22,092 bases of DNA from a virus. This document shows positions 1 to 18,448 of this stretch, in pieces (the stretch's first letter is position 1; each line of letters starts with the position of its first letter). The stretch lies in the UHGV virus genome UHGV-0073665, one strand, 5' to 3'. The notes beneath the pieces are model-generated. The model had not been told where the DNA came from. It searched no databases and saw nothing but the letters and a program-made list of their open reading frames with translations. The translations under genes were made by a program, and so were the position numbers.

Positions 1-682
1 GCATCAGGCGGATATCGTTAGCCCACCCAGCAAAATTCGGTTTTCTGGCTGATGGCGCGATGGTCTTCACCATGTCAAACATCCACTCTGCGGCGGTCAG
101 GTCTTCTGCTGTTCCCCACTTACTGCCGCTCTGAATTGCAGCATCCGGTTTAACCACAGAAAGATCGTTTTCTGGCTGGTCAGAGGATTCGCCAGAATTC
201 TCGGACGAATAATCTTTTCTTTTTTCTTTTGTAATAGTGTCTTTTGTGTCCCCCTGTTTTGAGGGATAGCAATCCCCCAATTTGAGGGATGTTTTATCCC
301 TCGTTTTAGGGGATTTTCCCTCGTTTTGAGGGATGCACCATTCTGAGATGTTTTTGTTTGGTCCAAACATGCCGCCTTGCTGCTTGATAATATTCATTCT
401 GACGAGTTCTAACTTGGCTTCATTGCACCGTTTGACAGGTAACTTTGTAATCTCGCTAAGTTGAGAATCGGTGATTCTGTCCATTGGTTTATTCCACCCA
501 TAGGTTTTACGCAGAATGGCAAGCAGCACTTTAAACTGTCGCTTGGTCAGATCTGCGCCCGAATAAGCCTCAAGCAGCATATTTGATAGTCTGGCGTAAC
601 CATCATCGAGATCTGCCACATTACGCTCCTGTCCGGCAAAGTTACCTCTGCCGAAGTTGAGTATTTTTGCTGTATTTGTCAT
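1..682 (-). CDS. O: Replication initiator O (lambda O-like), N-terminal ~227 codons; C-terminus lies beyond the window start
   Basis: Minus-strand frame is open from ATG (682..680) to position 1, so it is absent from the ORF track. Translation starts MTNTAKILNFGRGNFAGQERNVADLDDGYARLSNMLLEAYSGADLTKRQFKVLLAILRKTYGW..., which I recognise from memory as the lambda O N-terminal iteron-binding domain. Iterons lie inside the gene, as in lambda. Confidence 0.88.
   Translation of the reverse strand, partial: MTNTAKILNFGRGNFAGQERNVADLDDGYARLSNMLLEAYSGADLTKRQFKVLLAILRKTYGWNKPMDRITDSQLSEITKLPVKRCNEAKLELVRMNIIKQQGGMFGPNKNISEWCIPQNEGKSPKTRDKTSLKLGDCYPSKQGDTKDTITKEKRKDYSSENSGESSDQPENDLSVVKPDAAIQSGSKWGTAEDLTAAEWMFDMVKTIAPSARKPNFAGWANDIRLM
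249..334. repeat. Replication origin iterons (ori-lambda type), four ~18-bp repeats at ~23-bp spacing, with AT-rich tract at ~195..248
   Basis: Plus strand shows tccccctgttttgagggat (249), atcccccaatttgagggat (272), atccctcgttttaggggat (296), tccctcgttttgagggat (317). The reverse complement is ATCCCTCAAAACGAGGGA, the lambda iteron. The AT-rich tract lies downstream in the O reading direction. Confidence 0.8.
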
Positions 683-714
683 AATGACTCCTGTTGATAG
701 ATCCAGTAATGACC

Positions 715-1014
715 TCAGAACTCCATCTGGATTTGTTCAGAACGCTCGGTCTTGCACACCGGGCGTTTTTTATTGGTGATTTCATCAAGCGCATACTTAA
801 AAGCTCTGCTAATCGGACTGATGTCTGATGCCATGCCAAAAGCACACAAGACCGAAGCTATAAACCTCCAGTCTGTTCTGCTTATCTTCGATTCATGACA
901 GCCAATCATCTTTGCCAGACCGCGCTGAGTAAGCGTTGACAGGTTGATAAGTAAATCTGTTTCTGCGCGATCAACGTCGCGCTGTGATAGTTTGCTGTAA
1001 TTTGTTTGTTCCAT
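715..1014 (-). CDS. cII: cII-like transcriptional activator (lysogeny establishment)
   Basis: 99-aa ORF between cro and O on the same strand. C-terminus ...TNKKRPVCKTERSEQIQMEF closely matches the lambda CII C-terminus (...TNKKRPAATERSEQIQMEF, from memory). Confidence 0.75.
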   Translation of the reverse strand: MEQTNYSKLSQRDVDRAETDLLINLSTLTQRGLAKMIGCHESKISRTDWRFIASVLCAFGMASDISPISRAFKYALDEITNKKRPVCKTERSEQIQMEF

Positions 1015-1078
1015 TTCTTACTATTTCCATAGGTAAATAATCACTAATACGCATCTTTCGATGAGTTCTTAATTAGTT

Positions 1079-1113
1079 ACCGCGTTGTCGGCGGTGCAGA
1101 TTGATAAAGAGCG
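1079..1113 (-). promoter_or_regulatory. nutR: nutR-like site: boxA (CGCTCTTTA) followed by boxB hairpin (ACCGCCGACAACGCGGT) on the minus strand
   Basis: Between the cro stop and cII start. Reverse complement of 1105..1113 is CGCTCTTTA; 1079..1095 forms a 5-bp stem with a CGACAAC loop. BoxB matches my recollection of P22 boxB-right. Confidence 0.6.
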
Positions 1114-1120
1114 GTGTTAC

Positions 1121-1348
1121 TTATGCTGCCAGAAGGTTCTTTTTGCTTATTTCAAGCATTTCGCTTGCTTGATATTTGCCACCAGAAATCTCTTCGATTT
1201 TTGATGCGTATTTCGTTTTCCCAAAAAACTCAGTCTTAGGGAGGAAGCCGTTTTTGAGCCACTTATAGACAGCCCTTTCGCTAACTCCACAAGCCTTCGC
1301 AACTTCAGGGATGCCGACACCTTTAATCGGCTCATCAAGATTTTGCAT
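1121..1348 (-). CDS. cro: Cro-like HTH repressor (start taken at internal ATG 1348; track ORF extends to 1381)
   Basis: Divergent from cI across an operator region. HTH-like segment GIPEVAKACGVSERAVYKWLKNG. AAGGA lies ~10 nt upstream of ATG 1348. Function assigned by position and motif. Confidence 0.6.
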   Translation of the reverse strand: MQNLDEPIKGVGIPEVAKACGVSERAVYKWLKNGFLPKTEFFGKTKYASKIEEISGGKYQASEMLEISKKNLLAA

Positions 1349-1426
1349 AGGAATGTCCTTTTTCGTACTTTCAGTACGCATTATGGTTGAACTGAAAGTT
1401 TTTGCAAGTGCTTTAGTATCGTACTC
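1349..1426. promoter_or_regulatory. OR-like operator/promoter region (PR toward cro, PRM toward cI) with inverted-repeat operator CGTACTttcAGTACG
   Basis: 78-bp divergent intergenic region. Palindrome CGTACT-ttc-AGTACG at ~1363..1377 with related half-sites nearby. Candidate PR -35 TTGCAA and -10 CATAAT on the minus strand. TAGTAT lies 7 nt upstream of the cI ATG, suggesting a leaderless PRM transcript. Confidence 0.5.
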
Positions 1427-2134
1427 ATGGTTCAGAATGAAAAAGTGCGCAAAGAATTCGCCCAGCGGCTAGCGCAAGCCTGTAAAGAAGCTGGTCTTGA
1501 TGAACATGGTAGGGGAATGGCCATAGCCCGTGCCCTTTCTCTTTCGTCCAAAGGCGTTAGCAAATGGTTTAATGCTGAGTCTTTACCACGCCAGGAAAAA
1601 ATGAATGCGCTTGCGAAATTTCTAAACGTTGATGTTGTTTGGCTTCAGCACGGCACTTCGTTAAATGGAGCGAATGATGAAGATACTTTTTCAATTGTTG
1701 GCAAATTAAAAAAAGGGTTAGTGCGCGTGGTTGGTGAGGCAATTCTTGGTGTTGATGGTGCCATCGAGATGACCGAAGAGCGCGATGGGTGGCTCAAGAT
1801 TTATAGCGATGATCCAGATGCCTTTGGTCTTCGTGTAAAAGGAGACAGCATGTGGCCCAGAATAAAATCAGGAGAATATGTACTCATTGAGCCTAACACC
1901 AAAGTATTCCCAGGTGATGAGGTGTTTGTCAGAACCATTGAAGGGCACAACATGATCAAGGTTCTTGGCTATGACAGAGACGGAGAATACCAATTTACAA
2001 GCATCAACCAAGACCACAGGCCAATAACGTTGCCTTATCATCAAGTAGCAAAGGTGGAGTATGTAGCTGGTATTCTGAAGCAATCTCGCCACCTAGATGA
2101 CATCGAGGCCAGGGAATGGCTGAAAAGTTCATGA
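1427..2134 (+). CDS. cI: CI-type phage repressor: N-terminal HTH plus C-terminal S24 (LexA-like) self-cleaving peptidase domain
   Basis: 235 aa, divergent from cro. C-terminal region has the S24 signature (...RVKGDSMWPRIKSGEYVLIEP... then ...KVLGY...), consistent with RecA-stimulated autocleavage. Confidence 0.85.
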   Translation: MVQNEKVRKEFAQRLAQACKEAGLDEHGRGMAIARALSLSSKGVSKWFNAESLPRQEKMNALAKFLNVDVVWLQHGTSLNGANDEDTFSIVGKLKKGLVRVVGEAILGVDGAIEMTEERDGWLKIYSDDPDAFGLRVKGDSMWPRIKSGEYVLIEPNTKVFPGDEVFVRTIEGHNMIKVLGYDRDGEYQFTSINQDHRPITLPYHQVAKVEYVAGILKQSRHLDDIEAREWLKSS

Positions 2135-2263
2135 CTTCATCATCACATAGCTAGTAACCAGTACGTTTGGATGGTGGTGAGAAACACACTGCAAGCAAAC
2201 AGAAACATGGATATTAAAATATTAGCTTAACACAGCAAATCGAAAGAAACAGCGAGGGCTCGG

Positions 2264-3163
2264 ATGTCCCAAGAATTATCTTTAACCTTTACCGAAAACA
2301 TATATTATTCAACTAAAGAACCTGTAAGCATCAAAGATGTGATTACCTCCCTTCAAGGGTGGGAGGCCATCGCAAAACAATCAGAAGGTGTTTTGCAGGA
2401 ACTGACAGGGGCTAATATCCTTGATATATCGGTGCATGTTGCGCGATTAGAAGCAGGAAGCCTTTATGAAGATATTGTTATTAAACTCCTCTTTGGTAGC
2501 CAAGAAGAAATGGACAAGTTTCTTGCTGGCGCTCATGCAAAGATCGGAAATGGGAAAATGAGAAACGCTCTCGTTGGTGCTGTTGTTATTGGTCTGGTTG
2601 GATATGGCTTAGTTCTAGCAACTAAGGCTATGGCTCCAAGCAACACCTCCCACTTTGAAGCAAATAACAATACAATCATCAATATTGGTGCCGGTGAGGC
2701 TAATATTTCACCTGACCGTCTTCAAGCAATCATAGAAAGCACGGTAACCAATAAGAAGACTCTTGCCAAAAGTTCCATTAAGACGCTTGCCCCAGCTAGG
2801 GCAGACGAAGGATCTACGATGGTCATAGGTACAGGGGGTGGTACAGTGACCATTCCCGCTGAAACCATTAAAAAAGCCCCAACTGAAGTTGTCTTCACAC
2901 CAGAGTCATATACTCAGGATCATTTTGATGTTGATGTTGAAATCCGTGCATTAGACCTCGACAATCCAGAGAAAGGTTGGGCTGCTGTTATCCCTGGATT
3001 AATAGATCGAAGAGTAAATATGGTTCTTGGCCCCAACGTAAACCCATCAGATTTTGCAGGTAAATTTTCTGTACGTGCTGATATAACAATAACGTACCAG
3101 CTCAAATCATCAGATAAAAAATACCAACCGAAAGAAGTCTTTATAAAAGAAATAATCAAATAA
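2264..3163 (+). CDS. Hypothetical 299-aa protein with one predicted transmembrane helix (~residues 101-123); cargo gene at the rex-equivalent position
   Basis: Co-oriented with and immediately downstream of cI. GAGGG lies 5 nt upstream of the ATG. Followed by an intrinsic terminator. Looks AT-rich by eye relative to flanking genes. Hydrophobic stretch NALVGAVVIGLVGYGLVLATKAMA. No family recognised. Confidence 0.7.
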   Translation: MSQELSLTFTENIYYSTKEPVSIKDVITSLQGWEAIAKQSEGVLQELTGANILDISVHVARLEAGSLYEDIVIKLLFGSQEEMDKFLAGAHAKIGNGKMRNALVGAVVIGLVGYGLVLATKAMAPSNTSHFEANNNTIINIGAGEANISPDRLQAIIESTVTNKKTLAKSSIKTLAPARADEGSTMVIGTGGGTVTIPAETIKKAPTEVVFTPESYTQDHFDVDVEIRALDLDNPEKGWAAVIPGLIDRRVNMVLGPNVNPSDFAGKFSVRADITITYQLKSSDKKYQPKEVFIKEIIK

Positions 3164-3168
3164 TTATA

Positions 3169-3194
3169 CCCGGCCTCAGCGCCGGTTTTTCTTT
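3169..3194 (+). terminator. Rho-independent terminator after the cI-cassette transcription unit
   Basis: Hairpin CCGGC-ctcagc-GCCGG followed by TTTTTCTTTT. Confidence 0.6.
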
Positions 3195-3361
3195 TCCTCA
3201 CGATCGTCTACCTTATTTAACATCCGCACATGTGCTAACCCACGAACTAACACGCCAGCAAACAATTCTTTCTCTCCTACTGACCAATCTTCAATCTTTA
3301 CAAAAATAAATTCCTTTACATATCAAAAACATATCTCATTAAGTTAATGAACCACAAACAA

Positions 3362-3410
3362 TTCGTACTTATAGTTCTTGATAATATCGAACTATTGGTT
3401 CATTATAATC
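3362..3410 (+). promoter_or_regulatory. OL/PL-like region: operator-like repeats and candidate PL (-35 TTGATA, 17-nt spacer, -10 CATTAT) directed toward N
   Basis: Half-sites resembling those in OR (TCGTACTtatAGTTCT; CGAACTattGGTTCA). Position is upstream of nutL and N. Confidence 0.45.
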
Positions 3411-3453
3411 GCCATCAGCAGGACGCTGGCAGCCAAACGGAACAGATTGGCAG

Positions 3454-3487
3454 GCTCTTTAACTTCGATGATGCGCTGACAAAGCGC
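3454..3487 (+). promoter_or_regulatory. nutL: nutL: boxA-like GCTCTTTAA plus boxB hairpin GCGCTGACAAAGCGC (P22 type)
   Basis: Sits in the N leader. BoxB is a 5-bp stem with GACAA-type loop, matching the P22 boxB-left sequence as I recall it. Confidence 0.75.
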
Positions 3488-3605
3488 GAACAGATACCAA
3501 ACGAGATGGGTTTGGGGTGATGTGAATTGCAGCAGTAACGACAGCAACCAGAAGATCAGCATCTGGCGCATCACCACCAAAGCCATTTCACATGAGGAAA
3601 ACATC

Positions 3606-3914
3606 ATGACGGTAATCGTGTACGGAAAATCAACATTTGCAGGAAATGCCAAAACTCGCCGTCATGAGCGGCGCAGAAAGCTGGCCATCGAGCGTGATTC
3701 CATCTGCAACATCATCGATTCGATCTTCGGCACAGACAGTGAGGAACCTGTTCAGGAAGACCCGAGAAAGCGGTTAAGCCTTTCTGAAAAAGCAATATCA
3801 CTCGGAAGCCTTCGCTGCAAGAAAGTAGATGAATGCAGTGGAAGTGTTTGCCTGCCAAACGTAGCTATTTACGCGGCAGGCTACCGGAAATCAAAACAAC
3901 TGACGGCGAGATGA
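3606..3914 (+). CDS. N: N-type antitermination protein (P22 gene 24-like), start at internal ATG 3606
   Basis: Arginine-rich motif GNAKTRRHERRRKLAIERD matches the P22 N boxB-binding peptide from memory. GAGGAAA lies 6 nt upstream of ATG 3606. The track ORF from 3522 is a 5' over-extension into the leader. Confidence 0.85.
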   Translation: MTVIVYGKSTFAGNAKTRRHERRRKLAIERDSICNIIDSIFGTDSEEPVQEDPRKRLSLSEKAISLGSLRCKKVDECSGSVCLPNVAIYAAGYRKSKQLTAR

Positions 3915-3930
3915 TAAATTCATTTGCTAA

Positions 3931-4512
3931 TTACTTGTTTTTGCCATGCTTATCCTGAGCGATAAGTTCATCCATAAGACTGTCTTTCTTCCCAGCAAAC
4001 CTAATGTAGCACTCATTTCTATAGCGTTCCGGGATAACAAAACGGTCGATTTCAGGATATCCAGTAGCAGAAGGTACCCGAATAAGAAGCCCTTTTTCGA
4101 GCAATGAGATTGCTTCAGGGCTTCCCTTTTCTGTCTTTAGCTGGTTATTAGCGGCTACAGCGAATGCCAAATACGCTCTTTCTCCAAGAGTTAACGAATC
4201 AAACAAATCTTGCACGTATTTCTCTTCTTTAGATTTGCGCTTCTGAGCAGCGAATATCTCAATTCTTACAGTCACAGCGTGATAAGCGGAATTAACAACG
4301 CCGTTAAGCACATAGCTAACGCAAAACAACAGGATGTAATACATCCAGTAATGAGGAAGGATTTCTGGATTATGCAGGTTTATCCATTCTTTTACGCTTA
4401 CAGGCATAACAATAATCAATATGATCAGGATGATTAGCATATGAATCAACTGTTTAAGTGTCATTCCTTGCAGGAAAAAATGCATTAGTTCCTGCCACCA
4501 TGAGTTGTTCAT
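3931..4512 (-). CDS. sieB: SieB-like superinfection exclusion membrane protein
   Basis: 193 aa, opposite strand, between N and ral as in P22 and lambda. Two strongly hydrophobic helices (LIHMLIILIILIIVMPV; YWMYYILLFCVSYVLNGVV). N-terminus MNNSWWQELMHFF resembles P22 SieB as I recall it. Confidence 0.7.
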   Translation of the reverse strand: MNNSWWQELMHFFLQGMTLKQLIHMLIILIILIIVMPVSVKEWINLHNPEILPHYWMYYILLFCVSYVLNGVVNSAYHAVTVRIEIFAAQKRKSKEEKYVQDLFDSLTLGERAYLAFAVAANNQLKTEKGSPEAISLLEKGLLIRVPSATGYPEIDRFVIPERYRNECYIRFAGKKDSLMDELIAQDKHGKNK

Positions 4513-4530
4513 CGGCGTTTCTCTTTTGCT

Positions 4531-4584
4531 CTCTGTAGGGGTGAATAGAGTTTATCCGATTTCTCGCTGTAGGGGTACACGAGA
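4531..4584. repeat. Two tandem stem-loops each presenting CTGTAGGGGT (direct repeat at 4533 and 4567)
   Basis: ctctGTAGGGGTGAATagag and tctcgCTGTAGGGGTACAcgaga, in the sieB 5' flank and within the PL transcript between N and ral. Confidence 0.4.
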
Positions 4585-4655
4585 ACCACCGAGCCTGATG
4601 TGGTTAAAAGACAGGCACAATCTTTACTACCGCAATCCACTATTTAAGGTGATAT

Positions 4656-4742
4656 ATGGAAGAAGAATTTGAAGAGTTCGAAGAGCATCCTCAAGATGTG
4701 ATGGAACAATACCAGGACTATCCGTATGACTACGACTATTGA
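4656..4742 (+). CDS. Possible 28-aa highly acidic micro-ORF (MEEEFEEFEEHPQDVMEQYQDYPYDYDY)
   Basis: AAGGTG lies 5 nt upstream of the ATG. Its 3' end overlaps the ral start in another frame. Too short to support strongly. Confidence 0.25.
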   Translation: MEEEFEEFEEHPQDVMEQYQDYPYDYDY

Positions 4743-4926
4743 TACAAATCAATGGTGTGGACAATTCAAACGATGCAATGGATGCAAGCTGCAATCGGAA
4801 TGCATGGTTAAGCCTGAAGAAATGTTTCCTGTAATGGAAGATGGGAAATATGTCGATAAATGGGCAATACGAACGACGGCAATGATTGCCAGAGAACTTG
4901 GTAAACAGAACAACAAAGCTGCCTGA
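4726..4926 (+). CDS. ral: Ral (restriction alleviation protein)
   Basis: 66-aa product MTTTIDTNQWCGQFKRCNGCKLQSECMVKPEEMFPVMEDGKYVDKWAIRTTAMIARELGKQNNKAA is near-identical to lambda Ral as I recall it. Position downstream of N is as in lambda and P22. Confidence 0.85.
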   Translation: MTTTIDTNQWCGQFKRCNGCKLQSECMVKPEEMFPVMEDGKYVDKWAIRTTAMIARELGKQNNKAA

Positions 4927-5102
4927 TAGTGGCCTTTATTTTTGGCATAAATAACAGAATAAACACTGCACTGTGTATTCATTCCAACGAGTGAATACAC
5001 GGAGCAATGTCGCTCGTAACTAAACAGGAGCCGACTTGTTCTGATTGTTGGAAATCTTCTTTGCCCTCCAGTGTGAGGGCAATTTTTTTTGATGGAGGAT
5101 AT

Positions 5103-5453
5103 ATGAGTGAAGTAACAGATTTAGTTGTTATTGAAAAAGCAAATGCAATGACTGTATTTCAGTCTGCCGACCAGATTGAAGAAATTCTCCAAAAGGTTGA
5201 ACGTGAAGTTATGTCATTTGTGCCTGATATCACAACGGCAAAGGGCAGAAAGGAGATCGCTTCTCTGGCGTATAAAGTTGCGCAGACGAAAACATATCTC
5301 GATGGTCTTGGCAAAGACCTTGTTGCTGAACTGAAGGAAATTCCAAAGCTAATTGATGCCAACCGCAAGACAGTGCGCGATCGCCTTGATGAACTGAAAG
5401 CCAAGGCGCGCCAGCCTCTTACTGATTATGAGGAAGAATCAGGCGCGGATTAA
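5103..5453 (+). CDS. Hypothetical protein (116 aa from ATG 5103), possibly the N-terminal part of a split gene
   Basis: GGAGG lies 8 nt upstream of ATG 5103; the track start at 5007 is less likely. Occupies the position between ral and cIII. No family recognised. Confidence 0.5.
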   Translation: MSEVTDLVVIEKANAMTVFQSADQIEEILQKVEREVMSFVPDITTAKGRKEIASLAYKVAQTKTYLDGLGKDLVAELKEIPKLIDANRKTVRDRLDELKAKARQPLTDYEEESGAD

Positions 5454-6072
5454 AGCCGAAGAAGAAGCTAAGGCAGCAGCTGAAGCTCTCGCAAAGCAAA
5501 TTGAGTCTGACCATGAAATAGCGATTTTGATGGATCGCGAATTTGACCGCCAAAGAGAAGAGGCAAGACTCAAAGCGGAGCAGGAAAAGCGAGAGCATGA
5601 AGAACGATTAAAAAGAGAAGCTGAAGAGAAAGCCAGAGCAGAAGCCGAAGCAAAGGCAAAAGCCGAAATTGAAGCAGCAGCAAGGCGAGAAGCAGAAGCT
5701 AAGGCCGCAGCGGAACGTGCAGAGCGTGAACGCATTGAAGCCGAGCAACGAGCACAGCGCGAAGCAAAAGAGGCAGCAGAACGAGCTGAAAGAGAAAAGC
5801 AGGCAGCAATTGAAGCAGAACGCAGAAAAGCACAGGAGGAGGCTGAACGAATCCGTCGCGAGGCTGAAGCAAAAGAGCAAGCCAGAATAGCAGAAGAAAA
5901 AAGAATCAAGGACGAAGAAGAGCGTAGAGCAAAGGATAAAGCTCACCGGAAAGAAGTAAATAACAAAATACTTGCTGACCTTATCAAGGTTGGCGCATCA
6001 GAAGATGTTGCTAAAAATATCATAACAGCCATCGTAAAAGGCGAAGTATTCGCAACAAAAATAACCTACTAA
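5428..6072 (+). CDS. Hypothetical E/K/R/A-rich charged-helix protein (214 aa), possibly the C-terminal part of a split gene
   Basis: Long run of EAKAKAEIEAAARREAEAK-type heptads, then a short C-terminal segment. Overlaps the upstream ORF by 26 nt with no Shine-Dalgarno before its ATG. Confidence 0.45.
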   Translation: MRKNQARIKAEEEAKAAAEALAKQIESDHEIAILMDREFDRQREEARLKAEQEKREHEERLKREAEEKARAEAEAKAKAEIEAAARREAEAKAAAERAERERIEAEQRAQREAKEAAERAEREKQAAIEAERRKAQEEAERIRREAEAKEQARIAEEKRIKDEEERRAKDKAHRKEVNNKILADLIKVGASEDVAKNIITAIVKGEVFATKITY

Positions 6073-8024: not shown

Positions 8025-8543
8025 ATGAAACAAATGTCACTAATTGAGATGGATGGTTTTCTGAAAGGTAAATGCATCCCAAGTGATTTAAAGGTTAACG
8101 AAACAAACGCTGAATACCTTGTCCGTAAGTTCGGTGAACTTGAATCAAAACTGGAAACGGCGTTGCGGGAGTGTAGTTCTGCTGGAATCACGATTGATAA
8201 CCTTGAGGCTAAATGCGCGAAGATGGCTGCTGAAAATACCTCACTTAAGCAATCTGAGAAGGAATTTAATGACTTTTGTCGTGAGGAGTTTAGCGAATGG
8301 GAAGATGATGTTACTGAAACCCCAGCCACCGATGCTTTTCTGGCTGAAGTGCGGGCGCAGGGGGTGGATGCTGCTATAGAAGCTGCAAAAAATCTGGTGG
8401 CCCAAGAATATGAGTATAAGGATTTCAAAGCGGCGCAGAGTGATTGCTGTATGCACCCTGGTTCAGACCTGGTAGGGAAGGTTGAAATGACTGAGTGGTT
8501 AGTTGACTTTGCTGCCCAGCTTCGCAAAGGAGGCAACCAGTGA
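8025..8543 (+). CDS. Hypothetical acidic early protein (172 aa from ATG 8025)
   Basis: GGAG lies 9 nt upstream of ATG 8025; the track start 8007 is GTG. Strongly acidic composition. Confidence 0.5.
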   Translation: MKQMSLIEMDGFLKGKCIPSDLKVNETNAEYLVRKFGELESKLETALRECSSAGITIDNLEAKCAKMAAENTSLKQSEKEFNDFCREEFSEWEDDVTETPATDAFLAEVRAQGVDAAIEAAKNLVAQEYEYKDFKAAQSDCCMHPGSDLVGKVEMTEWLVDFAAQLRKGGNQ

Positions 8544-8839
8544 CTGTATGTCTTATTGATAAACGTCGACGTGGGCAACAAATACCATCTGTTGAAATGC
8601 CGAATCACACATGGTTTTGCGTACTTGATATCGATGGTATGGATACGTTGGTTGACACTCGTCATTACTGCGATACCGCAACAGCTACTCCGGCGAAAGC
8701 AAAGAAAATGGCTGCTCTGATAGAAAACTGGACTCCACCTGATGGTTGGTGCAATGGGAATGATCGAGATTGGCACGAAAAAATGAAGGGCTATATCTGC
8801 GATTTTTTACGTAAATGCAACGGCTTCAGGGGGATGTGA
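8540..8839 (+). CDS. Hypothetical early protein (99 aa, GTG start)
   Basis: AAGGAGG lies 6 nt upstream of GTG 8540, which overlaps the upstream stop. Confidence 0.5.
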   Translation: MTVCLIDKRRRGQQIPSVEMPNHTWFCVLDIDGMDTLVDTRHYCDTATATPAKAKKMAALIENWTPPDGWCNGNDRDWHEKMKGYICDFLRKCNGFRGM

Positions 8840-8840
8840 T

Positions 8841-9413
8841 ATGACCAAAATTAACTATCAGGCACTGCGTGAGGCGGCAGAACGTGCAATTCCGGCAATG
8901 GAACGCCTGTTAATGTTGCCAGTTGATGATGATTTGTTAAGTGAACAGGAACTTAAGGATTACGGTGTGGATATTGATGCGCTCAACGCCTTCAAATTTC
9001 TGACCGGACCAGAAACCGTGCTGGCGCTGCTGGATGAACGGGAAAGAAACCAGCAATACATCAAACGCCGCGACCAGGAGAACGAGGAAATTGCGCTAAC
9101 GGTAGGGAAGCTGCGCGTTGAGCTGGAAGCTGCAGAGAAGCGCATTGCAGAACTGGAAGCCGAACCTGTAAGCCAAACTTACAAGTTGAACGAGCTGTCG
9201 GGCAACTATCCGGTAACTCCGGATGGTTGGATAAGCTGTAGTGAGCGAATGCCCGCTCAAGATGATTGGATTTTAATTTATTCAAAGCACGGCGAGTATA
9301 TGGCAGGACAGGTACAAGGGGAATACGTGGAGTTGAGCGACGGCACTTTATCGTGGTTAGGGAACGCCTTGTACTGGATGCCTCTACCGGAACCGCCGCA
9401 GGAGGTTAATTGA
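8841..9413 (+). CDS. Hypothetical early protein (190 aa) with central coiled-coil and Trp-rich C-terminal domain
   Basis: ATG 2 nt after the upstream stop. C-terminal ...PDGWISCSERMP...WMPLPEPP resembles phage DUF551-type domains; this is tentative. Confidence 0.5.
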   Translation: MTKINYQALREAAERAIPAMERLLMLPVDDDLLSEQELKDYGVDIDALNAFKFLTGPETVLALLDERERNQQYIKRRDQENEEIALTVGKLRVELEAAEKRIAELEAEPVSQTYKLNELSGNYPVTPDGWISCSERMPAQDDWILIYSKHGEYMAGQVQGEYVELSDGTLSWLGNALYWMPLPEPPQEVN

Positions 9414-9697
9414 TGGTCTCCTTCGCGAAATATACGATTATTGACTGGATAGCATTCATTCAGGTTTTGCTCATCTGGTTTTATATGGCTTACAGGAGTG
9501 GACAGTGGATTGTCAGTGTAGCCTGTAGCAATGGATGGCGTTGGTGGAACCGAAAGAATAAAAAAGCGCTGGCCTTGGCTTCGTTTTACGAAGCATTCAA
9601 TCTTAACAGTCTTCAGCCTGGTTCTGTCGTTGTAGTCACCACTCAAAGCGGCATGACGATACAAATTCACAAGCCAAAGGAGGAAGGTCGTGGCTAA
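9413..9697 (+). CDS. Hypothetical small protein with hydrophobic N-terminal segment (94 aa from ATG 9413)
   Basis: GGAGG lies 7 nt upstream; start overlaps the upstream stop. Hydrophobic stretch IIDWIAFIQVLLIWFYMAY. Confidence 0.4.
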   Translation: MVSFAKYTIIDWIAFIQVLLIWFYMAYRSGQWIVSVACSNGWRWWNRKNKKALALASFYEAFNLNSLQPGSVVVVTTQSGMTIQIHKPKEEGRG

Positions 9698-9971
9698 CCT
9701 GCAACTTGCCGTTAAAGGTGAATACTTCGATGCCATGATTCGCGGAGAGAAAACGGAAGAGTATCGCCTGTGTAATGACTACTGGAATAAGCGAATTATG
9801 TTCCGCGAGTATGACCGCCTGATTATCACAAAGGGATATCCGAAGCGCGACGATTCCAGCCGCAGAATTGACGTCCCGTATGACGGATATGAAATCAAGA
9901 CAATCACACATCCCCACTTCGGTGATAAACCGGTAAAGGTGTTCGCGATAAAGGTGAATATTGATGGCTAA
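9690..9971 (+). CDS. Hypothetical protein, possibly ASCH/PUA-like (93 aa, GTG start)
   Basis: AAGGAGG lies 6 nt upstream of GTG 9690. N-terminal pattern KGEYFDAMIRGEKTEEYR resembles ASCH-domain proteins; this is tentative. Confidence 0.45.
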   Translation: MANLQLAVKGEYFDAMIRGEKTEEYRLCNDYWNKRIMFREYDRLIITKGYPKRDDSSRRIDVPYDGYEIKTITHPHFGDKPVKVFAIKVNIDG

Positions 9972-10302
9972 ATCAGCAGCAGAGCGCAAAGCCGCTCAGA
10001 GAGCCAGACAAGCTGCATCTGGTGTGCGTAAACTGGAGATTGTGCTTGATGCTCAGGAAATTGAAATGCTGGAGCGTAACTGTGCCACGCGTCGCCCCGG
10101 GCGTGCGCCTTACGAATTTGGTGAGTATATTGCGTTACTTATCCGCCAGGATGATGCTCGCGTGCACGGGCGTATAAAATCGATCAGCAGAAAACGTTGC
10201 GGTAAGTGCGGCGAGAGAGTTCCTGTGAATTCATGCCCGTGTAATGGTGACTCGCAATGCTGGGTGACCAAAGGCTGGCATGAAACGAAATTAATATTGT
10301 GA
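9964..10302 (+). CDS. Hypothetical protein with C-terminal Cys-rich (zinc-ribbon-like) segment (112 aa)
   Basis: AAGGTGA lies 6 nt upstream of ATG 9964. C-terminus has CGKCG...CPCNGDSQCW. Last gene before the terminase; stop codon lies inside the 16-bp palindromic motif. Confidence 0.5.
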   Translation: MAKSAAERKAAQRARQAASGVRKLEIVLDAQEIEMLERNCATRRPGRAPYEFGEYIALLIRQDDARVHGRIKSISRKRCGKCGERVPVNSCPCNGDSQCWVTKGWHETKLIL

Positions 10303-10311
10303 CATGTCACG
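10296..10311. repeat. 16-bp motif ATTGTGACATGTCACG (core perfect palindrome GTGACATGTCAC), copy 1, immediately upstream of TerS
   Basis: An identical 16-mer recurs at 12513..12528, just after TerL. Confidence 0.7.
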
Positions 10312-10323
10312 AGTGGGTTATGC

Positions 10324-11016
10324 ATGATGAATTTGATGGTTTTGAATACTGCCGCCAACTATGGCGGCTTTATTTTGCATGGTACTATTACCACAACGGT
10401 AACTATTACCACGGTGGTTATGATGCCTGCTGAACCTAAAGCCTATAAACGCAAATCAACGCAATTTAAGCCACTAACAGCAATGCAGGAGGCTTATTGC
10501 CAGTCATACATCAAAACGCCTGAAAACCAGACTCAGGCAGCGATTAACGCAGGATTCTCCCCAAATACAGCGGCAGTTAAAGCCAGTCTCATGATGCGCG
10601 ATGAACGCATTCAAAAACGGATTGCCGAGCTGATGGAAGAGCGCAACAAACGAATGCGCGTCAGTGCTGATTACGTTCTCATGCGCCTGGTGGAGATCGA
10701 CCAGATGGACGTGATCGACATCCTCAACGACGATGGGAGCCTTAAGCCAATCCGCGAGTGGCCGAAAATCTGGCGCACTACGCTTAGTGGCTTTGATCTG
10801 TCATCGACCATCATGAACATGAACGAGGATTCGATAGAGACAATCCTCAAAAAAATTAAATGGCCTGACAAGGTGAAGAACCTCGAACTGATTGGTAAGC
10901 ACGTCGACGTCAACGCATTCAAAGAACGCCTGGATGTTAATGTGAATGTGACAATTGCTGATCGCATAGCGGCAGCCAGGAAGAGACTGAAAGAACGCCA
11001 GGATGGCAATCAGTGA
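10324..11016 (+). CDS. terS: Terminase small subunit (alternative start ATG 10420)
   Basis: Directly precedes and overlaps TerL. Region ...KAYKRKSTQFKPLTAMQEAYCQSYIKTPENQTQAAINAGFSPNTAAVKA... is typical of the HTH DNA-binding part of small terminases. The Thr/Ile-rich N-terminal extension from 10324 is odd, so the start is uncertain. Confidence 0.65.
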   Translation: MMNLMVLNTAANYGGFILHGTITTTVTITTVVMMPAEPKAYKRKSTQFKPLTAMQEAYCQSYIKTPENQTQAAINAGFSPNTAAVKASLMMRDERIQKRIAELMEERNKRMRVSADYVLMRLVEIDQMDVIDILNDDGSLKPIREWPKIWRTTLSGFDLSSTIMNMNEDSIETILKKIKWPDKVKNLELIGKHVDVNAFKERLDVNVNVTIADRIAAARKRLKERQDGNQ

Positions 11017-12488
11017 CAGATACAGCGTTATCTCCTGAAGAGCAGTTAATCGAGGATATTGCAGGGTTCACTCACGATCCGCTTGGCTATGCCCTCTATG
11101 CGTTCCCGTGGGGGGAAGAGGGTACTGAACTGGCACATGCCACCGGTCCACGTCAGTGGCAGGCCGATGCGTTCCGAGAGATACGTGATCACCTGCAGAA
11201 TCCAGAGACGCGATATCAGCCGCTTATGCTGGCACGTGCTTCTGGTCACGGTATTGGTAAATCCGCATTCATCTCAATGCTGATCAACTGGGGCATGTCC
11301 ACTTGCGAGGATTGTAAGGTCGTGGTGACCGCCAACACCGACAACCAGCTACGAACGAAGACCTGGCCGGAAATTATCAAGTGGTCAAACCTTGCTATCA
11401 CGAAAGACTGGTTTACCTGTACCGCTACCGCGATGTACAGCAATGACCCTGGGCACGACAAGCGGTGGCGAGCTGACGCAATCCCCTGGTCTGAGCACAA
11501 CACTGAGGCATTCGCCGGACTACACAACGAGCGTAAACGCATCATCGTGGTATTTGATGAAGCGTCGAACATTGCGGATCTGGTGTGGGAAGTTGCCGAG
11601 GGTGCGCTAACGGACGAAGACACTGAGATTATCTGGGTGGCTTTCGGAAACCCTACACGTAACACCGGGCGTTTCCGTGAATGTTTCCGCAAATACAAAC
11701 ACCGCTGGAAAACTGCGCAGATTGACAGCAGGACGGTGGAAGGCACCAACAAACAGCAGTTGCAGAAATGGGTTGATGACTATGGGGAAGATAGCGACTT
11801 CGTTAAAATCCGTGTGCGTGGCATATTCCCTGATGCATCTGAATTGCAGTTTATCCCTACCGGTCTTACTGACGAGGCAATGAAACGGGTGGTAACCGCT
11901 GCGCAGGTGGCACATGCTCCGGTGATAATCGGTGTTGACCCGGCATATTCAGGCGTTGATGACGCGGTGATATACCTGCGGCAGGGGCTACACAGTAAGG
12001 TGCTGTGGACTGGCAACAAGACTACCGACGATCTGATTATGGCGAAGCGTATCGCTGACTTTGAAGACCAGTATCAGGCTGACGCGGTGTTCATCGACTT
12101 CGGTTACGGAACCGGTTTGAAGTCAATCGGTGACGGCTGGGGTCGTACATGGCAACTTGTTCCGTTCGGTGGCGCGTCTACTGACCCGCAGATGCTCAAC
12201 AAGCGTGGGGAGATGTTCAACTCATGCAAGACATGGCTGAGGCTCGGCGGCATGCTGGATGACCAGGAAACAGCGGACGACCTGTCGACGGCAGAGTACA
12301 AAGTTCGCGTGGACGGTAAAATCGTTATCGAACCGAAGGAAGATATCAAAGAGCGACTTGGGCGTTCTCCTGGTAAAGGCGATGCGCTACTGCTGACGTT
12401 TGCGTTCCCTGTGTCGAAGCGTCTGCGAATTCCCGGGCAGCAGAACCAGCAAGGCAAAGCCATCACAGACTATGATCCTTTTGCATAA
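11013..12488 (+). CDS. terL: Terminase large subunit (ATPase plus nuclease), GTG start
   Basis: 491 aa. Walker A-like ARASGHGIGKS, Walker B-like IIVVFDEAS, and a C-terminal acidic nuclease-type region. Start overlaps the TerS stop. Confidence 0.88.
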   Translation: MTDTALSPEEQLIEDIAGFTHDPLGYALYAFPWGEEGTELAHATGPRQWQADAFREIRDHLQNPETRYQPLMLARASGHGIGKSAFISMLINWGMSTCEDCKVVVTANTDNQLRTKTWPEIIKWSNLAITKDWFTCTATAMYSNDPGHDKRWRADAIPWSEHNTEAFAGLHNERKRIIVVFDEASNIADLVWEVAEGALTDEDTEIIWVAFGNPTRNTGRFRECFRKYKHRWKTAQIDSRTVEGTNKQQLQKWVDDYGEDSDFVKIRVRGIFPDASELQFIPTGLTDEAMKRVVTAAQVAHAPVIIGVDPAYSGVDDAVIYLRQGLHSKVLWTGNKTTDDLIMAKRIADFEDQYQADAVFIDFGYGTGLKSIGDGWGRTWQLVPFGGASTDPQMLNKRGEMFNSCKTWLRLGGMLDDQETADDLSTAEYKVRVDGKIVIEPKEDIKERLGRSPGKGDALLLTFAFPVSKRLRIPGQQNQQGKAITDYDPFA

Positions 12489-12510
12489 AAAAGCCCGCGA
12501 ATCGGCGGGC
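12487..12510 (-). terminator. Intrinsic terminator oriented for minus-strand transcription (end of the 140-aa ORF unit)
   Basis: Hairpin GCCCGC-gaatcg-GCGGGC at 12493..12510, followed on the minus strand by TTTTTT (plus-strand AAAAAA at 12487..12492). No U-tract on the plus-strand side. Confidence 0.6.
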
Positions 12511-12512
12511 TG

Positions 12513-12528
12513 ATTGTGACATGTCACG
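12513..12528. repeat. 16-bp motif ATTGTGACATGTCACG, copy 2, immediately downstream of TerL
   Basis: Identical to copy 1 at 10296..10311. Confidence 0.7.
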
Positions 12529-12531
12529 GCG

Positions 12532-12954
12532 TTAGAAGGTTATTTTATCGAATGCGGCGTTGATTGCCTTGGCGTCCTGCTCAGCACCAACCACATCAAG
12601 TAAAGATCTTTTACTAAGCACTTCAGCCAGGCATTGTAACTTCATGTTGTATAAGTTTTCGCGCATGTAATCATCATCACTTTTTTCTTTGGCGTATACA
12701 GCGCGAGAAATATCAAACACATTGCCTTTTTCCATTTCAGTTTTCTGCGCTGAAATCCAGTCATGGCAAGTAACTCCTATTCCATGGTCATCGCTAAGCG
12801 TTAACCCGGCCAGTCCCTCACTCTGAATTACTTCGTAATGCATTTCATTACCAGCAAAAACGCCATAAAAAACGCAGTCTTCAGCCTGAACGATACGAGA
12901 ATATTTTAATGGCCATTCATTTAGATACTTAGCCAACATATCAATTGTTTTCAT
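12532..12954 (-). CDS. Hypothetical 140-aa protein on the opposite strand inside the structural module
   Basis: AAGGTGA lies 4 nt upstream of the ATG on the minus strand. Flanked by terminators. No family recognised. Confidence 0.65.
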   Translation of the reverse strand: MKTIDMLAKYLNEWPLKYSRIVQAEDCVFYGVFAGNEMHYEVIQSEGLAGLTLSDDHGIGVTCHDWISAQKTEMEKGNVFDISRAVYAKEKSDDDYMRENLYNMKLQCLAEVLSKRSLLDVVGAEQDAKAINAAFDKITF

Positions 12955-12965
12955 GATCTCACCTT

Positions 12966-12989
12966 AAAAAAATGCCCGGCGAACCGGGC
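12966..12989 (-). terminator. Intrinsic terminator or attenuator (minus strand): GCCCGG-UUCG-CCGGGC hairpin plus U7, directly abutting the RBS of the 140-aa ORF
   Basis: Plus strand shows aaaaaaa then GCCCGGcgaaCCGGGC; on the minus strand this is a hairpin followed by a U-run. Confidence 0.55.
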
Positions 12990-13065
12990 GAACTGGAAGC
13001 AATGAGTTATGCCTTCCGTGGCTGTACGGGTTTACAGCATGAAGTCATCGCAATGGCGTCCTGCT

Positions 13066-13109
13066 GTAAAAAGGGCGGTGATAGTCCTTCAAGGGAAACC
13101 ATCACCGCC
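13066..13109 (-). terminator. Probable intrinsic terminator for the tRNA transcript (minus strand)
   Basis: 9-bp stem GGCGGTGAT/ATCACCGCC at 13074..13109, followed on the minus strand by CTTTTT. Lies ~44 nt downstream of the tRNA 3' end. Confidence 0.5.
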
Positions 13110-13152
13110 AAGCACCTGGAACTTCTGGCATCACGGTCCTTAGGCGTGATTC

Positions 13153-13229
13153 TGGCGTGGCATGCAGGATTCGAACCTGCGACCAACCGCTTAGAAGGCG
13201 GTTGCTCTGTCCAACTGAGCTAATGCCAC
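13153..13229 (-). tRNA. tRNA-Arg (anticodon UCU), 77 nt with encoded CCA
   Basis: Reverse complement is GTGGCATTAGCTCAGTTGGACAGAGCAACCGCCTTCTAAGCGGTTGGTCGCAGGTTCGAATCCTGCATGCCACGCCA. Folds by hand into a cloverleaf: 7-bp acceptor stem, D-stem GCTC/GAGC, anticodon stem ACCGC/GCGGT with loop CTTCTAA, T-arm GCAGG-TTCGAAT-CCTGC. Confidence 0.9.
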
Positions 13230-13656
13230 AACGCTGAGAGCACTTAGCCTGTTAAGGCGCCACACTTTGTCGCGGCTCCATAAATGCTCTCATCGTTGTA
13301 CCCTCGTCTCTTCCGAGGCGTCACACCGAATCGCCGGGATGGTGAATCCCCGTGCGCGGAATAAAACCGCTCGACTTGCACATTCCGGCTACCTGGTTCG
13401 TTTGCCCGAGCAAGGGAGGGTGCCCCTTAAACGTATCCAGACCGCTATCGGCGCATGTGCCATACGCCGTACTGCTCAAAATAAAAGCTCACTCCACCTG
13501 TTTAATTTAACGACAAGCCAGTCAGGTTAGTAACCAGAATGAGCCCTTTGGTTACCTGAAAGGTAATAATTAACGCGTTAAATGTCAACCTTCTACGATA
13601 AATAAATCATATGTGGTTAAATTGGTAATAATTTAATTGCGTACGGAGTCATTGAT

Positions 13657-13863
13657 ATGTGCATGGGTAGCTCACCATCAGTGCCTGCAACACCAGAAGT
13701 TCAGGCAGCACCACAGGAGCAGGATGCCGCCGTTGTTGATGCCCGCGACGAAGAAACACGTCGCCGTCGCGCTGCTGCTGGTCGTAGTTCTACGCTGCTT
13801 ACCGGTTCTCAGGGCGACACATCAACCGCTAATACCAGCGGTAAAACGCTGCTTGGTCAGTAA
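13657..13863 (+). CDS. Possible small Ala/Arg-rich protein (68 aa) immediately upstream of portal
   Basis: GGAG lies 8 nt upstream of the ATG, in a context (CGGAGTCATTGA) duplicated before the portal start. Low-complexity composition, so it may be spurious. Confidence 0.35.
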   Translation: MCMGSSPSVPATPEVQAAPQEQDAAVVDARDEETRRRRAAAGRSSTLLTGSQGDTSTANTSGKTLLGQ

Positions 13864-13877
13864 CCGGAGTCATTGAA

Positions 13878-15571
13878 ATGGCGGAAACAACTAAAGAGCG
13901 ATTGAACAAACAGTTCGCACAACTTGAAAGCGAGCGTCAGTCGTTCGAGCCGCACTGGCGCGAGTTGAGTGATTACATCAACCCGCGTGGTTCCCGCTTT
14001 CTGACTTCTGAAGTCAACCGTAACGATCGACGCAATACACGCATTATTGATTCGACCGGGACTATGGCGGCGCGCACTCTCGCCAGCGGCATGATGTCAG
14101 GCATCACAAGCCCTGCGCGTCCGTGGTTTCGCCTGGCTACGCCAGATCCTGAAATGATGGATTATGGTCCTGTTAAGTTGTGGCTCGAGGCGGTGCAGAA
14201 CCGCATGAACGATATGTTCAATAAGTCGAATCTCTACCAGTCTCTTCCGCAGTTATACGGAAGCCTCGGCACATACAGCACTGGTGCAATGGCGGTGCTG
14301 GAGGATGACGAGGAATACCAGAACCCGGTGGATCTGCTGTTTGAAGAACTGGCAAAAAAGAAGCCCAACTCCTTTGCCGGGCGGCAGTACAAACTTTACA
14401 AGCTGGCCGCAGGCAAAACCGCAAAATCAATCCTCATTTCTTGCGGTGCGGGCTAAATAACGTCAGCGAATCCGTAAAAAGCATGTGGGAAAGCGGCACC
14501 TACGAGAAGTGGATTGAAGTGATGCATTCGGTTTACCCGAACATTGACCGCGATACATCGAAGCTGGATAGCAAGAACAAGCCATTCAAATCGGTTTATT
14601 ACGAGGTTGGTGGCGATAACGACAAGTTGTTGCGTGAGTCCGGATTCGATGAGTTTCCAATTATGGCTCCGCGCTGGGAAGTTAACGGCGAAGATGTTTA
14701 TGGATCATCATGCCCGGGTATGCTGGCGCTTGGACCTGTTAAGGCATTGCAGCTTCTCCAGAAGCGCAAGTCGCAGTTGATTGATAAAGCCACCAATCCG
14801 CCGATGGTTGCTCCGACTTCCCTCAAGAATCAGCGTGCCTCCCTTCTTCCTGGCGACATCACGTATATCGATCAGATTACTGGTCAGGATGGTTTCAGGC
14901 CTGCTTATCTGGTTAACCCCAGTACAGCAGATTTGGTGGCAGACATTCAGGACACTCGTCAAATCATTAACAGCGCCTACTTTGTCGATCTGTTCATGAT
15001 GTTGCAGAACATCAATACCCGCTCGATGCCTGTTGAAGCGGTGATCGAAATGAAAGAAGAAAAACTTCTGATGTTGGGGCCGGTTCTGGAGCGTCTGAAC
15101 GACGAATGTCTTAATCCTCTCATTGACCGCTCTTTCTCGATGATGGTGCGTAAAAACATGCTGCCGCCACCGCCAGACGTGATGGAAGGTATGCCCCTGA
15201 AGGTCGAATACATTTCCGTCATGGCTCAGGCGCAGAAGTCTATCGGCCTGTCCAGTCTGGCGTCCACGGTTAACTTCATTGGTCAACTTGCGCAAGCGAA
15301 ACCAGAAGCTCTCGACAAACTCAACGTTGATCAGGCGATCGATGCATTCGCTGATATGTCCGGAGTGTCTCCAACCGTCATTGTTCCGCAGGAACAGGTT
15401 GAGCAGGCTCGCCAGCAACGGGCACAGCAGCAACAGCAGCAACAAATGATGGCGATGGGGATGGCGGCGGCACAGGGTGCCAAGACGCTAAGCGAAGCTA
15501 AAACTTCGGATCCGAGTGTTTTGTCAGCTATGGCGAATGCAGTTAGTGGTCAGGGTGGGCAATCACAATGA
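13878..15571 (+). CDS. Portal protein (T7 gp8-like podovirus connector), reading frame interrupted: ORFs 13878..14456 and 14441..15571
   Basis: N-terminal and Q-rich C-terminal regions (...QQRAQQQQQQQMMAMGMAAAQG...) resemble T7 gp8 from memory. The second frame is open from 14345. The A6 run at 14354..14359 (A_AAA_AAG in the zero frame) lies in the overlap zone. Confidence 0.75.
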
Positions 15572-15864
15572 CAGATTACGAAGACGATCAACTGAAAGAA
15601 GAAAACGCCCGTAAGCAACGTGACATGGCACAGCGTGAAATTGATGACATTCGCTTTGTCATGAGCAGTGAACAGGGGCGTCGCGTTGTCTGGTCGGTGC
15701 TGGAGAAAGGCCGTGTGTTTTCCGCTATCTCACCGATGGACGCTATGGCAATGGCATTTAATGAGGGGCAACGCAATCTGGCGCTGGAACTGTTTCAGCG
15801 CGTTATGGCGCATTGTCCTGAACAGTATTTGAAGATGGCCAAAGAGGCCAGTGAACAGGAGTGA
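15568..15864 (+). CDS. Hypothetical 98-aa protein between portal and scaffold
   Basis: Start overlaps the portal stop (ATGA). No family recognised. Confidence 0.5.
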   Translation: MTDYEDDQLKEENARKQRDMAQREIDDIRFVMSSEQGRRVVWSVLEKGRVFSAISPMDAMAMAFNEGQRNLALELFQRVMAHCPEQYLKMAKEASEQE

Positions 15865-15866
15865 TC

Positions 15867-16562: not shown

Positions 16563-16576
16563 GAGAGGAAATGACA

Positions 16577-17563: not shown

Positions 17564-17614
17564 CGCCTGTTATTAACCTGTGGGTCGTAACAGACCCACT
17601 AATGGAGAAAGAAG

Positions 17615-18052: not shown

Positions 18053-18053
18053 G

Positions 18054-18398: not shown

Positions 18399-18415
18399 GC
18401 CTCGCGGATCAGACA

Positions 18416-18436
18416 AGGGGCTTCGGCCCCTTTATT
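18416..18436 (+). terminator. Rho-independent terminator (GGGGC-UUCG-GCCCC plus UUUAUU) after the capsid gene cluster
   Basis: Stable tetraloop hairpin followed by a T-run on the plus strand. Confidence 0.65.
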
Positions 18437-18448
18437 GCAGGAGTGTAT

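Follow-up and report, generated by a model that had tools for sequence, protein, structure and literature searches.

A mobile single-gene cassette between the repressor gene and the left operator of a temperate coliphage: a candidate for a new prophage exclusion family

Introduction

What does a temperate phage gain from a gene that it keeps directly behind its repressor? In the viral genome UHGV-0073665, of which one stretch of 22,092 nucleotides (nt) was analysed as a whole (hereafter the window), the interval between the repressor gene cI and the left operator and promoter (OL/PL) carries a single open reading frame (ORF) encoding a protein of 299 amino acids (aa). Lying between cI and OL/PL, this ORF holds the place of lambda rexA/rexB. 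An original prediction, made from the letters of the sequence alone, described it as single-gene cargo in a recurrent cargo slot and as a candidate for an undescribed exclusion or abortive-infection factor. Based on position and architecture, we regard the 299-aa gene as a well-founded candidate for a new prophage exclusion family. The coordinates of the locus are collected in Table 1.

RexAB, BstA and the 933W kinase are known from the slot between cI and PL, and a fifth, unrelated cargo of a single gene is now shown to alternate with them behind one repressor allele. What sets the present gene apart from the many hypothetical genes of such hotspots is its exchange for BstA and a catalogued candidate system, its membership in a large family outside the domain libraries and its unusual membrane architecture with a part on either side.

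Cargo exchange behind one repressor allele

A search with window positions 1100-4000 uncovered E. coli prophages that keep cro-cI at about 95-98% nt identity and carry different slot contents. Behind one repressor allele (WP_000250470/473), found in the loci that we numbered L078, L079 and L084, the slot is filled by BstA, by PDC-M66 or by a cluster with DUF3024 and Ser/Thr kinase genes. In strain 2013C-4538 (L079) it holds a 300-aa BstA (PADLOC PDLC02356, 4.1e-106), while PDC-M66, a catalogued candidate system, comprises a HipA-like kinase and a DUF3037 protein. In O157:H7 strain OK1, a Ser/Thr kinase is encoded together with a DUF3024 protein and a hypothetical protein. This is the arrangement of 933W, in which the kinase brings about abortive infection of HK97. 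Two small ORFs occupy the slot of strain 2009C_3612 (L080) behind a different cI (WP_000428099.1), which shares the C-terminal part only. Together, L078, L079, L080 and L084 form a compact natural series for cargo exchange.

With rexA/rexB in the equivalent slot of lambda and other cargoes behind the same cI allele, the predicted recurrent cargo site at the rex-equivalent position was borne out. The alternation with a validated abortive gene, a catalogued candidate and a kinase cluster is the strongest support for an exclusion function, and it is still positional evidence. The interval between cI and N has been described as a hotspot that is expressed together with the repressor in the work on BstA (PMC8585504).

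A mobile cassette with its own leader and terminator

Comparison by blastn revealed that homology to other prophages begins at 2202-2255 and ends at 3190-3198, with unrelated repressors upstream and unrelated genes downstream. The matches cover 2222-3197 in L002 (94.9%), 2202-3190 in L003 (90.2%), 2228-3197 in L035, 2226-3198 in L037 and 2255-3190 in L004, and stem from Edwardsiella hoshinae (L002), Kluyvera ascorbata (L003), Leclercia (L004) and two IMG/VR contigs. A protein of 86-97% aa identity is thereby found beside unrelated repressors. The terminator travels within the cassette, as the homology with L002, L035 and L037 stops at 3197-3198. The ORF with its own leader and its own terminator is a mobile single-gene cassette of about 1 kb, moron-like in its sharp boundaries and its terminator and devoid of a promoter of its own. 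Its shared borders (2202/2222 to 3190/3198) and the lack of a recurrent partner gene agree with the horizontally acquired single-gene cassette of the original prediction, and its orientation along cI, its own ribosome-binding site (GAGGG, 2254-2258) and its closure before OL by an intrinsic terminator (hairpin at 3170-3195) could all be confirmed.

The 129-nt spacer (2135-2263) showed neither a promoter-like (sigma-70) nor a terminator-like site. Since the leader carried by the cassette measures only 40-60 nt, too short for a promoter, transcription must originate upstream, where the repressor promoters lie. By analogy with cI-rexA-rexB and with bstA (PMC8585504), the gene is probably expressed from the repressor promoters (PRM/PRE), and hence in lysogens.

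Foreign origin had also been suggested from a marked AT-richness. The GC content of the ORF, 0.412, falls at the 3.5th percentile of 900-nt windows (whole window, 0.478), and its GC content at third codon positions (GC3) of 0.327, compared with 0.41-0.49 in the neighbours, makes it a clearer outlier. In overall GC content, however, cro (0.421) and sieB (0.400) are similar, with cI at 0.453, so that the predicted contrast holds against the window and in GC3 but not against all neighbours, and the composition argument is a weak one.

The gene is both widespread and conserved. Window positions 1-5102 are 98.6-100% identical to the temperate coliphages Lambda_ev/1H12 (Jouyvirus), where it is annotated as gp50, "hypothetical protein". 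Of 5426 complete E. coli genomes, 150 contain the same 1066 bases at an identity of at least 99%, many of these being from clinical strains, and the exact 299-aa protein is present on at least 1000 contigs, always unnamed. The ratio of nonsynonymous to synonymous substitution rates (dN/dS) against four orthologues is 0.02-0.10 (with dS saturated for L004), which indicates strong purifying selection on the protein. As a separate observation, one among the 150 carrier genomes, E. coli EECO1006 (NZ_CP090319.1, 2225167-2227009), has the gene split by IS1B.

Such a pattern would also fit an envelope protein of lysogenic conversion that has nothing to do with defence and contributes to stress tolerance, surface properties or colonisation, as known from the lambda genes bor and lom. 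Moron behaviour and expression in lysogens are just as characteristic of genes for fitness or virulence, the strong purifying selection and the many clinical strains among the carriers suit it, and a conserved patch on the predicted periplasmic domain (described below) suggests a conserved envelope ligand. On the other hand, every alternative cargo with a name that follows this cI allele is a defence gene or a candidate for one, and the family includes members from environmental nitrifiers, methanotrophs and a cyanophage, for which traits of host association make little sense. We rate a conversion function as rather unlikely.

A large family outside the domain libraries

The only profile that recognised the 299-aa protein was PHROG 4506, a family without an assigned function (E 1e-170, 567.5 bits, residues 1-299 against positions 1-300 of a 300-position profile). 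An exhaustive profile search retrieved 661 representative clusters (50% identity) at E <= 1e-3, 282 of them at E <= 1e-30, whereas a word-indexed search of the same family had returned 56 clusters only. Among the matches listed (150 of 661), the proteins are about 300 aa long or apparent shorter fragments, none with an added domain. Their hosts include Enterobacterales, Pseudomonas, many Betaproteobacteria (Zoogloea, Cupriavidus, Nitrosomonas, Accumulibacter and others), Methylocaldum and a metagenome-assembled genome of the Desulfuromonadales, and one member belongs to a Leptolyngbya cyanophage; all identified hosts are diderm.

No match above threshold was obtained in Pfam or NCBIfam for the 299-aa protein, and ten diverse relatives were likewise without a Pfam domain. 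The Pfam hits that did appear, DUF1206 with 16.9 bits against a cut-off of 26.2, were below threshold and driven by the transmembrane helix. PADLOC-DB 2.0.0 (releases to 2023) gave 0 families at E <= 10 for the 299-aa protein and none for a homologue from a P. aeruginosa phage, a result consistent with the undescribed factor that had been proposed. The Protein Data Bank (PDB) contains no sequence relative, and a Foldseek search of BFVD returned two uncharacterised viral proteins only, one of them DUF6575, from which no function was gained. The UniRef label "Baseplate J-like" on one relative (P0014) was not reproduced. Our literature searches found no paper describing a protein of the PHROG 4506 type. 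As far as Pfam, NCBIfam, PADLOC, PDB and the literature searches reach, the family is undescribed, which supports the claim that it belongs to no recognised one.

Genomic contexts of the homologues

For neighbour counts, the homologues were grouped at 85% identity into 40 clusters. BLAST identified a single widely recurring neighbour family, the repressor, in 9 of 40 clusters, where it was upstream in every case and in most cases shared the strand; with non-S24 repressors included, for example the RacR type in Pectobacterium and that of P. aeruginosa phage U9, the count rises to about 12-13 of 40. A co-oriented repressor ORF with a helix-turn-helix (HTH) domain, alone or combined with S24, lies upstream in 21 of 44 loci, its end ranging from 3 nt inside the homologue to 652 nt away, mostly 38-324 nt. 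Besides the repressor and cro, no conserved partner gene was found among the 40 clusters.

This linkage to several unrelated types of repressor raises the question of whether the protein might be a transmembrane regulator of the prophage switch, with an anti-sigma-like layout (about 100 aa forming a cytoplasmic domain, then a membrane helix and a periplasmic sensor) that tunes induction. RexAB has been reported to aid the transition from lysogenic to lytic growth, and a chain with its N-terminus inside and its C-terminus outside has the layout of signal-transducing bitopic proteins. Nevertheless, many homologues reside far from any repressor (in the Q-holin interval, in tail and head regions or on a satellite-like element), the 86-97% identical gene accompanies unrelated repressors, and the N-terminal domain carries no DNA-binding or anti-sigma signature. 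A role in the switch thus appears quite improbable.

The sites away from repressors are varied. In the Q-holin interval, homologues were found on the opposite strand (L042, preceded by a weak promoter-like site) and on the same strand (L077). Others lie between the tail-tube and tape-measure genes (L007) or precede the genes for a Mu-like protease and capsid (L068); in a transposable cyanophage, the homologue has a lysozyme gene nearby, and in L076 it is carried by a satellite-like AlpA/DUF3987/MobA element. The gene thus behaves as a self-sufficient accessory gene that enters the usual moron sites, not as a core phage function.

Five clusters adjoin holin or endolysin genes, and taken together with those in head or tail modules they could hint at a task in the lytic cycle, such as lysis timing in the manner of an antiholin or an aid to injection or assembly. 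Yet these are classic moron sites where orientation varies, as L042 demonstrates; in the window, the gene is cut off from PL by the terminator that it carries and forms part of the presumed lysogen transcript, and close relatives with the same cI lack it, so it is dispensable. A lytic role is, in our estimation, highly improbable.

Two further arrangements were noted among the homologous loci. In L016 and L062 (Methylocaldum; 5121-5914), a Hypoth_Ymh (PF09509) protein is encoded directly upstream and co-oriented, where the repressor would be. In the P. aeruginosa phage vB_Pae_U9 (L074, 2867-3923), two unannotated genes of 162 and 157 aa are inserted between repressor and homologue; neither gave a PADLOC match or a convincing Pfam match, and the pair suggests that a cargo block of several genes fills the slot there.

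Predicted architecture of the 299-aa protein

The ORF list and hydropathy bore out the predicted layout, with a soluble N-terminal part, one transmembrane helix and a C-terminal part of about 175 aa. An AlphaFold2 model from a 45-sequence alignment was confident (predicted local distance difference test, pLDDT, 85.9; predicted TM-score, pTM, 0.71) and shows the order beta-alpha-beta-beta-alpha (residues 5-94), a helix at 101-123, more helices up to about residue 179 and a beta-rich C-terminal domain. The transmembrane helix is preceded by about 100 aa and followed by 179 aa. Lysine and arginine residues number 3.4 on the N-terminal side of the helix and 0.9 on its C-terminal side, with an excess before it in 44 of 45 homologues. 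From this excess and the absence of an N-terminal signal peptide, we infer that the N-terminus faces the cytoplasm and that the last 175 or so residues are periplasmic; this topology is a prediction from sequence.

Just past the membrane, FEANNNTIINIGAGE is nearly invariant in close homologues, the motif being weaker across the broad family. The juxtamembrane motif shows heptad-like spacing (F131, I138, I141, I148), invariant residues in close homologues (A133, N136, I139, G142, A143, G144) and a majority frequency of 0.87 in the block 131-140, and probably represents an Asn-rich oligomerising stalk. Across the broad family (23-39% identity), conservation extends to L30, G65, S66 and F77 in the N-terminal domain, G115 in the membrane helix, P177 and P206, and in the C-terminal domain to A229, D231, D233, G238, W239 and R250, forming a D-x-D...GW...R patch.

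These features may be read in terms of abortive infection, in which a phage would be sensed in the periplasm or by the N-terminal domain and the membrane helices and stalk would form a pore or collapse the membrane potential, so that the cell dies before progeny is formed. The characterised occupants of the slot, RexAB and BstA, are abortive systems, as is the 933W kinase, and RexB and SieB are cited as abortive precedents of the membrane type. A Gly-rich membrane helix followed by an almost invariant polar motif, the joining of domains on both sides of the membrane in a single gene and a host range broad enough for a generic effector such as depolarisation would all suit such a mechanism. Against it stand the single membrane helix per chain, the lack of similarity to a known pore-forming effector or to RexB, the lack of any PADLOC match and the absence of any sign of a self-immunity element. 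Abortive infection, although the main rival of the exclusion reading proposed below, is of fairly low probability.

The same architecture would be compatible with a transmembrane immune sensor in one polypeptide. Here, the barrel would detect genome delivery (the conduit of ejection or tape-measure proteins, or periplasmic DNA) and signal by way of the membrane helix and the Asn-rich stalk to the cytoplasmic domain or to an oligomeric pore, with abortive infection, or rescue of the prophage through its induction, as the outcome. We consider such a sensor distinctly unlikely; if it existed, it would amount to a new family of defence that signals from the outside in, contains none of the known domains and occurs in phages of Proteobacteria as well as cyanobacteria.

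Proposed function

The reading to which we tentatively lean, on the grounds of position and architecture, is that of an exclusion factor expressed by lysogens and possibly acting at the envelope, by interfering with genome delivery across the periplasm or the inner membrane. According to this proposal, the promoterless moron, consisting of leader, gene and terminator in the hotspot between cI and OL/PL, would be read from the repressor promoters and give rise to protein in lysogens. The product would be placed in the inner membrane with a cytoplasmic alpha/beta domain, a Gly-rich membrane helix, a stalk and a periplasmic OB-like barrel, and would shield the lysogen and its prophage from superinfecting phages at the envelope. 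As the most likely route, stalk and barrel may disturb the delivery conduit, at its ejection or tape-measure proteins or at the factor in the inner membrane on which these rely, so that the DNA would be kept from the cytoplasm, which is how P22 SieA and HK97 gp15 work. Interference with genome delivery is favoured because this is the activity of most small or single-pass proteins of the inner membrane that have been characterised in prophages and because the bulk of the 299-aa protein is predicted to face the periplasm.

Several points weigh against this proposal. No defence or exclusion family shows homology to the 299-aa protein, with 0 PADLOC matches and hhalign probabilities below 1% against RexA, RexB, SieA and BstA. 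Position in a hotspot is guilt by association, as morons carry traits other than defence too, and both topology and lysogen expression are predictions. A conserved periplasmic patch and strong purifying selection would be expected for a conserved ligand rather than for phage proteins that evolve fast, and hosts ranging from Enterobacterales to that of a cyanophage argue against a receptor-specific block.

If the gene does encode an exclusion factor, it would define a new membrane-anchored family with a predicted periplasmic OB-like module, and this would bear on the response of clinical E. coli lysogens to therapeutic phages. If it is not a defence gene, it would serve as a warning against annotating hotspot cargo from position only. 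In either case, its compact size and its own terminator make it an easily tested gene.

Features of the locus and its surroundings

The repressor gene lies directly 5' of the 299-aa ORF in the same orientation, its product is labelled as a transcriptional repressor in phage 1H12, and cro-like and cII genes run divergently on its other side. Half-sites of the TCGTACTnATnGTTC type at 1362-1378 and 1419-1433 in the right operator (OR) match those at 3363-3377 and 3387-3401 in OL. The PL-like promoter at 3378-3406 overlaps the OL sites and is directed toward N. As had been predicted, a sieB gene is located nearby; it is found beyond N (3606-3914), at 3931-4512 on the minus strand, and not directly across PL.

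Table 1. Positions of the described features in the window (strand: +, -, or. for none).
Feature	Position	Strand	Basis and remarks
Right operator region (OR) between cro and cI	1362..1434	.	Repeat families D2, D6, D20; half-sites recur at OL
cI-type prophage repressor	1427..2134	+	Pfam PF00717 (Peptidase_S24) 3.5e-16, PF01381 (HTH_3) 1.2e-5
Spacer between cI and the ORF, 129 nt	2135..2263	+	Only the last 40-60 nt inside the mobile cassette (blastn)
Mobile cassette (moron unit): short leader with ribosome-binding site, ORF, terminator	2202..3198	+	blastn, 77-95% nt identity
Shine-Dalgarno sequence GAGGG	2254..2258	+	5 nt upstream of ATG, read directly from the sequence
299-aa ORF, PHROG 4506 member, predicted bitopic membrane protein	2264..3163	+	ORF list, profile match, hydropathy
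N-terminal alpha/beta domain, aa 1-95	2264..2548	+	No signal peptide; predicted cytoplasmic; conserved L30, G65, S66, F77
Single Gly-rich transmembrane helix, aa 102-120, ALVGAVVIGLVGYGLVLAT	2567..2623	+	Hydropathy KD19 = 2.24, the sole window >1.6
Juxtamembrane motif FEANNNTIINIGAGEA, aa 131-146	2654..2701	+	Top-conserved stretch among close homologues; predicted helical
Predicted C-terminal five-stranded beta-barrel, aa 213-299	2900..3160	+	OB-like order b1-b2-b3-(short helix)-b4-b5; predicted periplasmic
Intrinsic terminator	3170..3195	+	CCGGC-CTCAGC-GCCGG and TTTTTCTTTT tail; five G-C pairs, 6-nt loop
OL operators and PL-like promoter	3355..3406	+	Repeats 3363-3401; TTGATA-17-CATTAT at 3378-3406
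N antiterminator, first gene of the PL operon, far border of the slot	3606..3914	+	PF25694, 4.9e-41, full length
sieB homologue, second exclusion gene nearby, outside the cassette	3931..4512	-	PF14163, 3.2e-25

Some side observations concern the surroundings of the cassette. A small ORF at 3392-3604 (-), named FIG00644188 in phage 1H12, lies antisense over the PL/nutL leader; Pfam gave no match for it, and whether it is coding is doubtful. An imperfect direct repeat of 33 nt (76%) has one copy near the start of the ORF (2290-2322) and the other just upstream of OL (3321-3353); it was recorded because the self-immunity element of BstA is located at the 5' end of the bstA gene (PMC8585504), and is probably due to chance, as the copy at 3321-3353 falls outside the shared cassette. 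At 5428-6072 (+), an ORF of 214 aa consists mostly of Lys/Ala/Glu/Arg repeats, coincides with an AT-skew spike of up to 0.78 and has no Pfam match; an ORF downstream of sieB that RefSeq labels "TolA" (a pseudogene in L080) appears to correspond to it.

The window as a whole is a mosaic. While the immunity and early-left part matches 1H12/Lambda_ev, positions 8316-22092 (terminase, portal, capsid and tail) share 99.9-100% identity with prophages of E. coli IHE3034 and APEC O18, and no complete E. coli genome contains at least 80% of the 22 kb.

Comparison with known systems

PHROG 4506 names the family of the 299-aa protein and carries no function. Position and the probable logic of expression connect the protein with RexAB and BstA, and possibly its way of acting with SieA or SNIPE, yet it belongs to none of these systems. 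SNIPE (PD-lambda-1) resembles the 299-aa protein in being one membrane-anchored polypeptide, acting at the site of genome injection (PMC13190303). The two are not identical, as SNIPE combines an N-terminal transmembrane segment with a cytoplasmic DUF4041 domain and a GIY-YIG nuclease, neither of which is present in the 299-aa protein (Pfam, PADLOC), whose large C-terminal part is, in contrast, predicted to be periplasmic. Tab, the tail-assembly blocker of Pseudomonas, was also rejected, since it has another location and belongs to another phage type, and no transmembrane segment is mentioned in its paper.

With lambda RexA/RexB, the cassette shares the slot between cI and OL/PL, the orientation, presumed co-transcription with the repressor, a membrane component and a role accessory to phage growth. 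RexAB, however, consists of two genes for a polytopic RexB and a cytoplasmic RexA, whereas the cassette holds one gene, and hhalign against the family profile gave probabilities of 0.1% for RexA and 0.5% for RexB. BstA of prophage BTP1 is likewise the product of a single gene for about 300 aa, directly 3' of the repressor and with its own terminator, and occupies the same slot in 2013C-4538. It acts by abortive infection and is accompanied by the self-immunity element aba, while no aba-like element was identified at the 299-aa gene. The 300-aa slot protein of L079 had been considered as a divergent homologue of ours; it is BstA (with a weak HTH match), and the comparison gave E 3.5 in BLASTP and 0.1% in hhalign.

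P22 SieA also is a single inner-membrane protein made by the prophage that acts at the envelope on incoming DNA (PMC10883804). It differs in its length of 164 aa and in the place of its gene, which lies in immI and not next to c2; hhalign yielded 0.5% over 10 columns. HK97 gp15 and the proteins of the lactococcal Sie2009 type are likewise small inner-membrane prophage proteins that block DNA injection.

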